Source: a virus. From it: a DNA stretch of 11,407 nucleotides. Numbering within the stretch: the first letter of the stretch is position 1; each line of letters starts with the position of its first letter. Both the position numbers and the translations under genes were made by a program. Where the stretch lies: IMG/VR virus record IMGVR_UViG_3300005541_000153. The stretch is one strand, 5' to 3'. The notes below the pieces were generated by a model. The model ran no database searches, had not been told where the DNA came from, and saw nothing but the letters and a program-made list of their open reading frames with translations. Of this stretch, positions 6,821 to 10,460 are shown piece by piece.

Positions 6821-7101
6821 GGCTGCATCAGGTCGTTGTTGTGGAGCCAGCCCAGGCGGTTGTTGGGGAGCAGGCAGAAGCTGTAACCTTCGCGGCCGTC
6901 TTTCAGCCCTGTGGCAACGACCATCGCCAAGTCACCATCGCCAGCTCGGAACAGCTCGACGATGACTGTGCTGGTGCTCTCGACAACGCGTCCCAGCTCC
7001 TTGTTGTAGTGGGAACGCATCTGGGTCTCCTGGAAGACCGGGTCACCGTGGACGGGCGCGTTGCTCTTCACCATGAACAGTGCACCTGGCTTCGCTTTCA
7101 T
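6817..7101 (-). CDS. Small hypothetical protein and PG-motif family member.
   Basis: The ATG at 7101 overlaps the upstream stop (ATGA at 7098..7101). The ORF track's 7110 start is a GTG three codons upstream. The protein reads MKAKPGALFMVKSN... The C-terminus ...LMQP* and the stop context repeat the 13-mer also seen at 2500. Confidence 0.6.
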   Translation of the reverse strand: MKAKPGALFMVKSNAPVHGDPVFQETQMRSHYNKELGRVVESTSTVIVELFRAGDGDLAMVVATGLKDGREGYSFCLLPNNRLGWLHNNDLMQP

Positions 7102-7325
7102 GTCTCGCACTCCTCGTAGTCGTCGTCTTCACCGCAGTTGCCTGCGGGTTCGGGTGGTGGTGGAGGTGGGGGTACGCTGGCATCGGGGGTGTTGTTGAGC
7201 GGGATGGCGGGCACTGGGTCGGGTTGGACCTGACCCAACCTGATCGACAGGAGGATGGCCACGTAGAACATCGCCGCGGCGACCCAACCTCCCAGCTTCA
7301 CCGGGCCCTCTTCCCCAGCCCCCAA
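7098..7325 (-). CDS. Small membrane protein with one transmembrane helix, a poly-proline stretch and an acidic Cys-containing tail.
   Basis: 75 aa from a TTG start at 7325; an ATG at 7271 is an alternative start. It has a transmembrane stretch (GWVAAAMFYVAILLSIRL), then PPPPPPPEP and ...CGEDDDYEECET. Confidence 0.45.
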   Translation of the reverse strand: MGAGEEGPVKLGGWVAAAMFYVAILLSIRLGQVQPDPVPAIPLNNTPDASVPPPPPPPEPAGNCGEDDDYEECET

Positions 7326-7405
7326 CCGCCTGCGACGCAGAGGAACATCAGCAACGCGATGCCTGCAGGCATGCAGACCAGGATGTCTGTGGCGATCTCG
7401 CTCAT
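7298..7405 (-). CDS. Possible 35-aa single-helix membrane peptide.
   Basis: The protein reads MSEIATDILVCMPAGIALLMFLCVAGGWGLGKRAR. The ATG overlaps the upstream stop (ATGA at 7402..7405). GC3 is about 85%. The R-rich N-terminal extension in the ORF track (to 7708) looks non-coding. It overlaps the next gene by 28 nt in another frame. Confidence 0.4.
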   Translation of the reverse strand: MSEIATDILVCMPAGIALLMFLCVAGGWGLGKRAR

Positions 7406-8212: not shown

Positions 8213-8499
8213 CACGCAGCCTGCCTTTCTTCCCGAGTGGGGACGCCGAAGACCAGATACACGTTGTCGACGAAGTGAGCGTGGACCAGCTTGACGAGCT
8301 CCAGTTCTTTGATGCCCCCGGCGGTCAACTGGGACCATACCCAGATCTGGAGCTCCCCACACAGCTTTCGGTGCCGGTCCACGAGACGTCGCCACTGGTT
8401 GGGCGTCAGCTCATCACTCCAGACCAGCACGGTCGTGACGATGTGCTGTGCTTCGCGGATGCCCGCTTCGCCACTGAGGCTGTCCCGGTACGGGTGCAT
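8212..8499 (-). CDS. Hypothetical protein.
   Basis: About 95 aa reading MHPYRDSLSGEAGIREAQHIVTTVLVWSDELTPNQWRRL... The ATG at 8499 (or GTG at 8502) overlaps the upstream stop. Confidence 0.55.
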   Translation of the reverse strand: MHPYRDSLSGEAGIREAQHIVTTVLVWSDELTPNQWRRLVDRHRKLCGELQIWVWSQLTAGGIKELELVKLVHAHFVDNVYLVFGVPTREERQAA

Positions 8500-9032
8500 C
8501 ACGCCTTCCCCTTTGCTACCTTGCGAGCCTCTCGCTCGGCCTTGATGACATCCTTGGGACGGTTCTTGCTGCCCTTGGGCCGCCCACGGCCTTTCTGGCC
8601 CGGCAGCCGCTGTGGTTTCGGCTGCTTGGGCGGGGGCGGCGGCTCGAATGGGTTGCCACGGGCCGGCGCGAGCTTGAAGATGTGGAGGGCGTCCTTGAAG
8701 TTGGTGTAACGACAGGGCGGGTTGCGGGGGTCGCTGTCCTCGTCCCAGACAGTGACGAGGCCCGTGTCGTCGTCGATGCTCCGGACCTTGCCGACGATGG
8801 TCTCCAGCCAGGGGGTGCCCCTGAGCAAGGTCGTCCGACGGTCGACCACAATGCGGTCGCCCACGTCGAAGAGCGGGACCACCGACCCGTCACCCGGGTC
8901 GACATGGACCCCACTGGCCAGGTGGTCGATGTTGGGACGTCGTGCCTGCCAGCGCTCGAAGCGAGCCTCGTTCGAGATGAGGTCCTCGCCTGAGAGCTCA
9001 GCCTCCTCCAGTGCCTGCGGGGTTGGCTCCAT
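8499..9032 (-). CDS. Putative DNA-binding protein with a KOW/SH3-like core and a C-terminal AT-hook plus basic tail. It is the first gene of the leftward operon.
   Basis: From the ATG at 9032 the product is 177 aa (MEPTPQALEEAELSGEDL...). The core reads VGDRIVVDRRTTLLRGTPWLETIVGKVRSIDDDTGLVTVWDE. The C-terminus contains PPPPPKQPKPQRLPGQKGRGRPKGSKNRPKD (a GRGRPKG AT-hook) followed by KAEREARKVAKGKA. The ORF track's longer N-terminus (to 9125) would cross the control region and is Cys/Ser-rich and non-coding-looking. Confidence 0.6.
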   Translation of the reverse strand: MEPTPQALEEAELSGEDLISNEARFERWQARRPNIDHLASGVHVDPGDGSVVPLFDVGDRIVVDRRTTLLRGTPWLETIVGKVRSIDDDTGLVTVWDEDSDPRNPPCRYTNFKDALHIFKLAPARGNPFEPPPPPKQPKPQRLPGQKGRGRPKGSKNRPKDVIKAEREARKVAKGKA

Positions 9033-9108
9033 GGTCAAATCATACCACGTGAAGGGCTGGACTTTCACTGACGTGGTACAACACGACAACCTGTAGGACA
9101 ATGGCGGC
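9033..9108. promoter_or_regulatory. Divergent intergenic control region with an inverted repeat (operator-like) and a leaderless-type -10 element for the leftward operon.
   Basis: This is the only sizeable non-coding gap, lying between divergently oriented genes. On the minus strand, TATGAT (plus 9039..9044) sits 6 nt upstream of the ATG at 9032, the geometry of actinobacterial leaderless promoters. An 8-bp perfect inverted repeat, TACCACGT (9043..9050) and ACGTGGTA (9071..9078), has flanking partial arms TGAA/TTCA and contains the palindrome CACGTG. One arm abuts the -10. Confidence 0.45.
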
Positions 9109-9558
9109 ATGCAGCCTTCAGGCACCTCAGTTGACGGAGTGAAAGTCGGGCTCGATAGTTACTACGTCCACGACACGTACTCGGGTGTCCTGATGGGAGT
9201 GCCCTCAGCAGACATGATGATTGACGCGGCGAAGTGCACCGCGGAAGACATCTGGGGCAAGGGTCGCCCGACGCTGGTGGTCCCGCCCAAGCGAACCCCC
9301 ATCCTGAAGCCCGACGGCACGCCCCGGGTGTGCACCTGGCCAGGGTACACGGGCAAGCCGCTGGAGAGCCTGCCCGATCGGGTCATGATGGCATGGCTCA
9401 GCTGCTTCACACCGCCCGAGGGCACTGACTTCGACGGGAGCCACCTGTTCGTCATCTGGTTCGACGACCAGGACGCGACTGACCCGGTGCTGATGGCCCT
9501 GAAGCACGTCAACGAAGCGGGAGGCTGGTGGAAGAATGCCCAAGGTTGGAGCATCTGA
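9109..9558 (+). CDS. Hypothetical protein and first gene of the rightward operon.
   Basis: 149 aa with protein-like composition (MQPSGTSVDGVKVGLDSYYVHDTYSGVLMG...). The antisense ORFs here are Ser/Arg-rich junk. Confidence 0.65.
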   Translation: MQPSGTSVDGVKVGLDSYYVHDTYSGVLMGVPSADMMIDAAKCTAEDIWGKGRPTLVVPPKRTPILKPDGTPRVCTWPGYTGKPLESLPDRVMMAWLSCFTPPEGTDFDGSHLFVIWFDDQDATDPVLMALKHVNEAGGWWKNAQGWSI

Positions 9559-9838
9559 ACACGTCTGGCGAGCGGGCGACCTCTGCAAACGCTGGATCGG
9601 CATCATCAGCCGCGTTGTTGAGGTGATGCCCCCAAGGGACGATGCCAAGGTCGGCTCACGTCAGCGGTACACCCGTCTCCGGCTCGAGCAGGCAACGCCG
9701 CTGTTCGGCACCCACAGCAAGAAGACGATCGTGCTGGCCCAACAGTGCCAGCCCTTGACGCTGGTGGACTTGGGCACTGAGTATATGAAGCTTGGCAACT
9801 TCATCCGAGAAGAAGCACGAAAGCGAGGCATGGAATGA
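9536..9838 (+). CDS. Small hypothetical protein, paralog A of a tandem pair.
   Basis: 100 aa. The ATG at 9536 lies downstream of GGGAGG, with a 23-nt overlap of the upstream gene. The motif WRAGDLCKRW...VVEVMPPRDD...LGTEYMKLGNFIREEARKRG matches paralog B. Confidence 0.6.
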   Translation: MPKVGASEHVWRAGDLCKRWIGIISRVVEVMPPRDDAKVGSRQRYTRLRLEQATPLFGTHSKKTIVLAQQCQPLTLVDLGTEYMKLGNFIREEARKRGME

Positions 9839-10176
9839 CGTGGCAAGGCAGCAACCCGTTCGACTCCGACTACCCGTGGCGTGTCGGTGAGATCTGCACC
9901 TGCAACTACCAGGGCATCGCTGGTGGCCTGCTCTACATCGTCACTGAGGTGACGCCCCCAAGGGAGGAGAAGCTGGCCAACGGCACCAAGTACCAGGCCG
10001 ATGCGCAGCTCAAGATCAAGCCCGTCTATGGCCTGTTCCAGGACATCGAGGGGCGCAAGACCCGCAAGATCGGTGCGGGCTGGTGCAGGCCACAGTCGTT
10101 GATCGAGCTCAGCACCGAGTATGCCAAGCTGGGTCACTTCATCGCCGACCTGGCGCGGCTCCGTGGCGCAGAGTGA
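9835..10176 (+). CDS. Small hypothetical protein, paralog B of a tandem pair.
   Basis: 113 aa. The ATG overlaps the upstream stop (ATGA at 9835..9838). The motif WRVGEICTCN...VTEVTPPREE...LSTEYAKLGHFIADLARLRG matches paralog A. Confidence 0.65.
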   Translation: MTWQGSNPFDSDYPWRVGEICTCNYQGIAGGLLYIVTEVTPPREEKLANGTKYQADAQLKIKPVYGLFQDIEGRKTRKIGAGWCRPQSLIELSTEYAKLGHFIADLARLRGAE

Positions 10177-10460
10177 AGCCCGGAGACCTCATCAAGGTCG
10201 ACCCGGTCGACTGGAAGAAGACAGACGAGAAGTTCGGCCGTCGCATCCTGTTGACGAAGCTCCCGGAGCCCATTGAGAACCCAGGCAACGCCATCACGGG
10301 CAGATTGGTGAAGGATGAGGTCGGCATCGTCGTGGCGACACAGACGATCGAGACACACCCACGGGACGGGTGGCAGCTCGAGGGCAAGCACCTCGAGGTG
10401 TTGGTGCTCTTCGGTGAACGCCTGGGTTGGAACAGTTCCCAGTGCTTCAGCCTCGCCTGA
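10173..10460 (+). CDS. Small hypothetical protein and PGDLI family member.
   Basis: The GTG at 10173 overlaps the upstream stop (GTGA). The protein reads VKPGDLIKVDPVDWKKTDEKFGRRILL...GRLVKDEVGIVVATQ. The ORF track's 10083 start lies inside the preceding gene. Confidence 0.6.
   Translation: MKPGDLIKVDPVDWKKTDEKFGRRILLTKLPEPIENPGNAITGRLVKDEVGIVVATQTIETHPRDGWQLEGKHLEVLVLFGERLGWNSSQCFSLA

Follow-up and report, generated by a model that had tools for sequence, protein, structure and literature searches.

The 76-bp gap at positions 9033-9108 of the window (the whole 11,407-bp contig that was analysed) probably holds two divergent promoters, set back to back, and not a repressor operator; the DNA is that of an uncultured huge phage. 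The leftward promoter, P_left (9069..9032, minus strand), would be a strong copy of a promoter class found throughout a group of related phages. The rightward promoter, P_right (9072..9109), would be made up of a conserved GTACA block and the hexamer GACAAT, and would be weaker and also leaderless.

The gap and its inverted repeat

The gap separates gene A, read on the minus strand, from gene B, read on the plus strand. On the plus strand the gap plus both start codons reads, from 9030 to 9111, CATggtcaaATCATACCACGTgaagggctgGACTTTCACTgACGTGGTACAACacgacaacctgtagGACAATggcggcATG. The flanking genes and the arms of the inverted repeat are as follows.

8499..9032, minus strand: gene A, which heads a leftward operon of more than 9 kb without gaps; beta-barrel core and a C-terminal AT-hook, RGRGRPKGSKNRPK
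9109..9558, plus strand: gene B, first gene of a short rightward operon (9109..10460)
9043-9050: inverted-repeat arm 1, TACCACGT on the plus strand; coincides with the extended -10 of P_left
9071-9078: inverted-repeat arm 2, ACGTGGTA on the plus strand; overlaps the conserved GTACA block

A sequence-only reading of this DNA had described the gap as a divergent control region with an operator-like inverted repeat over a leaderless-type -10, and its description of the letters is accurate. The 8-bp inverted repeat is perfect, with 20 nt between the arms. The CACGTG palindrome said to be embedded in it is present at 9046-9051, and the secondary TGAA/TTCA arms are both found within the spacer of the repeat. 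On the minus strand TATGAT (9044..9039) is followed by TTGACC (9038..9033) and the ATG (9032..9030), which places the hexamer 6 nt before the start codon, with TTGACC standing where an SD sequence would be. The gap is also, as had been stated, the only real intergenic gap: the leftward block is otherwise gapless, its genes being packed with ATGA and GTGA overlaps from 9032 to position 2, and the sole apparent hole is occupied by a 35-aa open reading frame (7298..7405, minus strand). This small open reading frame, MSEIATDILVCMPAGIALLMFLCVAGGWGLGKRAR, looks like a single transmembrane helix, is coupled to its neighbours by ATGA and GTGA overlaps, and is missed by lists of open reading frames with a 60-aa cut-off.

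A bare inverted repeat of this size is not remarkable by itself. The window has 4 perfect 8-bp inverted repeats with spacers of 3-30 nt, as compared with 8.3 +/- 3.7 in Markov-1 random sequences; any 76-nt stretch should hold about 0.056. The promoter that contains one of the arms, by contrast, is far beyond chance.

A promoter class in related phages

Eighty metagenomic loci with gene A homologues were fetched, to which four distinct close orthologues (five loci) were later added, and the sequences upstream of in-frame ATGs were lined up across the gene A loci. One arrangement is found over a range of gene A identity from 83% down to 30%: [A/G]GTGCAAAGT, exactly 10 nt, cGTGGTAnnAT, 6-9 nt and ATG. 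It precedes the gene A homologue in 58/84 loci; the remaining loci mostly have no upstream sequence. Gene A is the gene most consistently preceded by the class promoter.

A position weight matrix (PWM) was made from 47 distinct sites and used with a cut-off of >=14 bits; it was seeded by a regular expression that required a TAnnnT hexamer, and some of its columns are thereby inflated. The TG of the extended -10 shows T at 0.81, which was not forced by the seed, and G at 0.97, which the seed required. At the cut-off, 185 sites are found in 65 non-redundant loci (352 kb) versus 0.7 in shuffles, and about 130 of them lie before genes other than gene A. Some loci display a site before nearly every small open reading frame, e.g. 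L053 with 15 in 7.8 kb. The first ATG follows at exactly 6 nt in 119/185 sites, at 7 nt in 17 and at 8 nt in 6; an ATG is situated at 5-8 nt in 143/185. The loci of the group were sampled in soil, peat and freshwater, and their GC content ranges from 33% to 70%.

The upstream box and the TGnTAnnnT element are spaced as two hexamers 17-18 nt apart, and the architecture of the class thus appears sigma-70-like. At the rigid 17/18-bp spacing the upstream box reads GTGCAA or TGCAAA, unlike TTGACA. Instead of being a variant of the host -35, GTGCAAAGT might be recognised by a sigma factor that the phages encode, or by a sigma-appropriating activator, shared by the huge-phage group, although we regard this as rather unlikely. 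If it were so, these phages would run their own transcription programme, with most small-gene transcripts leaderless; the giant phages phiKZ and AR9, whose starts have been mapped, offer no parallel.

Where the class promoter lies farther from the start codon (L042, L092, L012), an SD-like GAGG or AGGAG is present in a short leader. This fits a transcription start about 7 nt after the -10, and hence a leaderless mRNA where the ATG is at 6 nt. In L042 the hexamer is TACAAC or TATAAC at six promoters, each followed by an SD leader. L092 (JBBAUR010000009.1), an 89-kb contig in a Bdellovibrionota MAG bin, carries a gene A homologue and 10 class sites in 10.4 kb; with so many copies of the phage promoter, the contig probably belongs to a phage and not to a bacterium. 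Short leaders with AGGAG or GAGGTG replace the ATG at 6 nt in both L092 and L042, so leaderless versus short-leader use appears to vary by sub-lineage.

The promoter motif is absent from LR756500, a huge phage of 24% GC that shares the Major Vault Protein (MVP)-like protein of the window, and is therefore not a general huge-phage feature. A limited literature search found no description of the motif or of leaderless genes in huge phages.

The predicted leftward promoter

The following elements make up P_left; a second copy of its upstream box is also listed.

9069..9060, minus strand: P_left box 1, -35-like, AGTGAAAGTC; class consensus [A/G]GTGCAAAGT; box score 9.5 bits
9049..9039, minus strand: P_left box 2, extended -10, CGTGGTATGAT; TG at 9047/9046, hexamer TATGAT at 9044..9039; 15.9 bits
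9038..9033, minus strand: P_left spacer TTGACC, 6 nt from the -10 to the start codon; nnGACC plus ATG conserved among orthologues
9138-9147, plus strand: second copy of AGTGAAAGTC, inverted with respect to P_left box 1; codons 10-13 of gene B

P_left is very probably a class promoter with leaderless geometry. Its total score is 25.4 bits with a box gap of exactly 10 nt, and in the PWM scan it is the only strong site of the window, the next best match having 16.6 bits (2098..2068, minus strand). Box 2 is by far the best box 2 match in the window, fits the class consensus cGTGGTAggAT and is identical in L001, L007 and L089. A generic sigma-70 scan gave two matches in the 11.4-kb window, of which one is GTGAAA-18-TATGAT with an upstream TG at P_left. 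In TGG-TATGAT both the TAnnnT hexamer and a TG one base upstream of it are found, and GTGAAA agrees with TTGACA at 4/6 positions. The secondary arm TGAA of the sequence-only reading sits within the conserved -35-like box, and matrix positions 19-26 read A-C-G-T-G-G-T-A, which is the arm ACGTGGTA in the minus-strand reading.

The leaderless layout proposed earlier, with the -10 hexamer 6 nt before the ATG and no SD, recurs in gene A homologues at 30-83% protein identity and in well over 100 other genes of related phages. From this we infer a transcription start of P_left at the A of ATG 9032 and a leaderless transcript; the leaderless claim derives from geometry and conservation only. A sigma-70-family holoenzyme, likely in view of the sigma-70-like architecture, would most likely open the -10 of P_left and start at this A. 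The product would be a leaderless mRNA for gene A, with more than 20 tightly overlapping downstream genes translated off the same transcript.

The other generic sigma-70 match, TTGACG-17 nt-GATAGT (9131-9159, plus strand), points rightward and lies within the 5' end of gene B. An in-frame ATG at 9193 follows it, but the conserved protein N-terminus still favours the gene B start at 9109. This N-terminus (SVDGV...DSYY) is conserved in L006, L087, L088 and L002; 5 homologues of gene B were found, and the protein gives no Pfam or PHROG match.

The two copies of box 1 form a perfect 10-nt inverted repeat, GACTTTCACT at 9060-9069 and AGTGAAAGTC at 9138-9147. On a plus-strand RNA they would pair and enclose the start of gene B. 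This repeat is probably a coding coincidence, since it is not conserved in L006, which shows GCGTCATAGTC; L002 has a box-1-like CGTGAATGTC at the same gene B codons. A role in RNA through a longer plus-strand fold that uses the 10-nt repeat (z = -2.55) was considered and rejected because the repeat is not conserved. Folding of the gap RNA itself gave z = -1.3, and an RNA scan yielded no Rfam matches and no tRNAs. If the predicted starts are right, the 8-bp inverted repeat would be transcribed from neither P_left nor P_right, as it is situated upstream of both starts.

Gene A and its start codon

Gene A has at least 129 homologues (alignment A1), nearly all on metagenomic contigs. The AT-hook-like sequence RGRGRPKGSKNRPK is invariant, and the C-terminal end forms a basic helix. 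The structure model (pLDDT 83.5) is a small beta-barrel with weak fold similarity to bL19 and tandem-Tudor proteins. As modelled, this profile is unlike that of a sequence-specific dimeric repressor; gene A could encode an early DNA-binding protein.

ATG 9032 is the conserved start, and the homologues begin at an aligned M-E. P0001 instead starts gene A at GTG 9068 (9066..9068, minus strand), within the -35-like box, which gives 189 aa with the N-terminus MKVQPFTWYDLTM... P0016, P0023 and P0056 are over-extended as well, and extensions of this kind consist of translated promoter, e.g. ..WYDLTM, with ..WYDWTM and ..TWYHVNM among the homologues. The leaderless layout thus leads to a systematic start-codon error in gene calls.

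The inverted repeat as an operator

In the model of the sequence-only reading, TACCACGT-N20-ACGTGGTA is an operator. A dimeric repressor, for which the flanking proteins would be candidates, would bind both arms, cover the -10 and thereby control the two operons. We consider that model highly improbable, and the inverted repeat is quite probably not an operator. In favour of an operator, the arms match perfectly, their pairing occurs once in the window and covers part of the -10, and the chance expectation is about 0.06 for the 76-nt region and about 0.1 across 212 promoters. One arm, however, is the consensus extended -10 of about 185 promoters, so that the sequence of this arm needs no operator.

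Eight orthologous intergenic regions were aligned, with a gene A identity to the window of 72-83% in the seven relatives. Complementarity of at least 7 bp between the arms is found in 2/8 of these regions only (the window and L001/L007) and is lost in 6/8, the orthologues not being independent samples. L001/L007 keep 7-bp arms in spite of a diverged spacer between the two boxes, which speaks for an operator, but the arms show no co-variation. L006 (arms TACTCCCGT and TCGAGGTA) and L087 (arms TACTCACGT and TCGAGGTA) have lost the complementarity at a gene A identity of 83%, although they are no more distant from the window than L001. L089 displays the identical extended -10 (CCGTGGTATGAT), and as its other arm is TACTCGC, complementarity is lost here as well.

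Recurrence of the repeat motif was searched for in the window and the fetched loci. The exact arm pair occurs a single time in the window, and among the fetched loci it is found only in the orthologue L001/L007, with the 7-bp arms. An exact inverted copy of a promoter's own extended -10 8-mer within 40 nt upstream is found, among 212 distinct promoter copies, only in the window (control 0.1). With one mismatch allowed, the same 212 copies add only the window's orthologue and one AT-rich chance case (control 1.6). The arm centres are 28 bp apart, or about 2.7 turns of 10.5 bp, which by this geometry argument places the arms on different sides of the helix.

The flanking proteins also bear on the proposal. 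Gene A does have a DNA-binding AT-hook, but it models as a beta-barrel, and a Pfam and PHROG scan of ten neighbouring open reading frames showed no HTH or repressor-type domain. AT-hooks bind AT-rich minor grooves and not GC-rich sites such as TACCACGT. The claim of a dimeric-repressor operator for both operons is thus not supported by symmetry among orthologues, by half-site spacing, by recurrence or by a repressor-type domain nearby.

The inverted repeat most likely looks as it does as a by-product of promoter sequence. The perfect 8-bp symmetry would arise because the upstream box of P_right reads GTGGTAC, like the extended -10 of P_left, in this lineage only. Being most likely a side effect of this kind, the inverted repeat should not be annotated as an operator.

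The rightward side of the gap

Three elements on the plus strand are considered here.

9074-9079, plus strand: putative P_right -35-like element TGGTAC, within the conserved GTACA block
9097-9102, plus strand: GACAAT, a -10-like hexamer proposed for P_right; separated by 17 nt from TGGTAC and by 6 nt from the start codon of gene B
9074-9082, plus strand: alternative rightward -10, TGGTACAAC; 7.3 bits for box 2 alone

GTACA is invariant in the 8 orthologous regions, whereas the complementary ACGTG part is not. In the rightward reading the block appears as TGGTACA in the window and L001 and as GAGTACA in the other orthologues. The window has the layout TGGTAC (9074-9079), GACAAT (9097-9102), ggcggc and ATG 9109. 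Seven orthologues show nA(C/T)AA(C/T) 17-18 nt past the GTACA block and 6-7 nt before the rightward ATG. Hexamer and GTACA are kept whether the rightward gene is gene B (the window, L006, L087, L002, L088) or a gene-C-like paralogue (L089, L090), and the ATG-to-ATG distance in those seven regions is 76-78 nt. L001 has both elements as well; its ATG lies 18 nt from the hexamer, i.e. 12 nt farther, with GGAG 6 nt upstream of the ATG. The register of the rightward elements is like that of the class promoter, with a box at 9072-9081, a 10-nt gap, the hexamer and 6 nt. The gap can thus be read as two 38-bp modules, 9069..9032 and 9072..9109, set 2 bp apart.

From this layout we infer, tentatively and at slightly less than even chances, that the GTACA block and GACAAT form a weaker rightward leaderless promoter, P_right, at 9072..9109. 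P_right as a member of the class was rejected: the class PWM gives it -5.2 bits, which is in the top 0.1% of window positions but below the 14-bit cut-off, and the -10-like hexamer has neither the T at -12 nor an upstream TG. A second promoter class of the form GAGTACA...ACAAy was also rejected, as the composite is found only at the orthologous site and other GAGTACA matches are coding.

Another reading, which seems unlikely, takes the arm at 9071-9082 (ACGTGGTACAAC) as a rightward extended -10. Transcription would then start near 9089, gene B would have a leader of about 20 nt, and the inverted repeat would be two opposed copies of the same extended -10. Among the box 2 matches on the plus strand of the window, CGTGGTACAAC ranks 4th (7.3 bits). 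The corresponding place in L001 reads CGTGGTACACT, and a spacing of 26-27 nt between the element and the start codon of gene B is conserved. The six L042 promoters, in which TACAAC or TATAAC precedes an SD leader, are a parallel for such an arrangement. There is, however, no box 1 at the obligatory 10-nt gap, and in 6/8 orthologues the TG is lost through an extra base that leaves GAG-TAC in place of TGG-TAC. The hexamer ends in C or G in 6/8, and the putative SD (AGGA, GGGA or GGAA) is far from the ATG, at 10-12 nt. The conserved nAnAAy 6 nt before the ATG, which forms part of P_right, would be left unexplained.

The GTACA block could also be a regulator site instead of a promoter element. Seen from P_left it lies at about -43 to -49, upstream of box 1, where it might be an activator site or UP-like element that tunes P_left, the rightward operon being driven from elsewhere. 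TGTAC(T)C is invariant in the 8 orthologues while neighbouring bases vary. Moreover GTACA lies outside the class-wide PWM, in which positions -15 to -1 carry little information, and its absence there makes it locus-specific. This alternative is nevertheless very unlikely. The gap of only 76 bp leaves the rightward operon no other room for a promoter, the distance of 17-18 nt to the rightward -10-like hexamer is fixed even where the rightward gene differs, and no candidate binding protein was identified. P_right is thus the preferred reading of the block.

Other features of the window

The open reading frame 2..2503 (minus strand), which runs off the left end of the window, shows Pfam matches to the MVP shoulder and the Vault_3 repeat (E = 5e-29 and 4e-9). 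At its N-terminus it has a CxxC zinc-ribbon. Unannotated open reading frames of LR756500, LR756501 and LR756503 match 80% of its length at 42-44% identity. A vault-protein homologue is unusual in phages; the published uncultured huge phages with MVP-like proteins are 462-735 kb.

The second best match to the class promoter, AGTGTAAAGC-10 nt-AGAAGTAGAGT (2098..2068, minus strand), lies within the low-complexity linker of the MVP-like open reading frame. It is about 40 nt upstream of an in-frame ATG at 2027, where the similarity to MVP-like phage proteins begins. The match may be an internal promoter, from which the MVP-like part would be made independently of the zinc-ribbon part.

Many small open reading frames at 4700..7110 (minus strand) and 9536..10460 (plus strand) carry an N-terminal (K/R)xGD(L/M)(V/C) motif, e.g. 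MKPGDLVRN, LKTGDLVRC, LRTGDLVVP, WRAGDLCKRW and VKPGDLIKV. Two of them, 9536..9838 and 9835..10176, are paralogues with 34% identity. These sequences look like an expanded family of small beta-rich proteins. At 10460/10461 the stop codon of the rightward operon abuts the stop codon of a convergent minus-strand gene, with no spacer and no terminator-like hairpin.

Source of the window

The window represents part of the genome of an uncultured huge phage, not part of an actinobacterial chromosome. Related huge-phage contigs are 72-369 kb long, with several in the range of 300-370 kb. The window appears to have no cultured relative: neither megablast with its full sequence nor tblastn with gene A gave a match among 50,697 phage records. 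A search of genome collections for the host yielded 3 MAG contigs only, of which one is the contig binned with Bdellovibrionota (L092).

The genes of this group are almost all unknowns, and a simple, highly specific bipartite motif that marks transcription units and true start codons in phages of 300-370 kb is therefore a practical key to them. It points out where gene callers mis-extend N-termini in this phage group, and it gives a direct handle for in vitro transcription tests. The class further suggests that leaderless translation may be the default for the many small genes of the group, which would constrain the possible hosts.

Comparison with known systems

The gap resembles lambda-type immunity regions and TetR/tetA-type regions in having divergent genes, a short gap and an inverted repeat over a -10. 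It differs in that the half-sites are 28 bp apart, versus about 10-11 or 21 bp in those operators. In addition the symmetry is not conserved, no HTH regulator is adjacent, and one arm is explained by the promoter consensus.

P_left is like the leaderless mRNAs of Actinobacteria and Deinococcus-Thermus, and like lambda cI from P_RM, in that the -10 ends 6 nt before the ATG and no SD is present. Unlike in those cases, the arrangement here is the rule for a whole phage promoter class, with the ATG at exactly 6 nt in 119/185 sites. The two giant phages with mapped transcription starts differ from the predicted leaderless class, as none of the phiKZ transcripts was seen to be leaderless (PMC8244752) and the leaders of AR9 measure 26-491 nt (PMC5312081).

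[quoted passage not shown] They share with the class reported here a TG one base upstream of a TAnnnT hexamer, and both are phage promoter classes with their strength in the -10 region. The present class differs from P23-45 in its well-conserved upstream box, GTGCAAAGT, held at a rigid distance. To our knowledge the P23-45 middle and late promoters have no -35 element. Many P23-45 transcripts are reportedly leaderless, as Berdygulova et al. are said to have found in 2011.

In T4, early promoters are a phage-specific 'flavour' of host sigma-70 promoters, and in the middle promoters a MotA box replaces the -35. T4 transcripts have leaders with an SD. The sequences of the class here are unrelated to those of T4, and nothing here points to AsiA/MotA-like appropriation. 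The likeness to the early and middle promoters of T4 lies in the many copies of one strongly conserved promoter before clusters of small unknown genes, and in a conserved upstream element that departs from the host -35 consensus.
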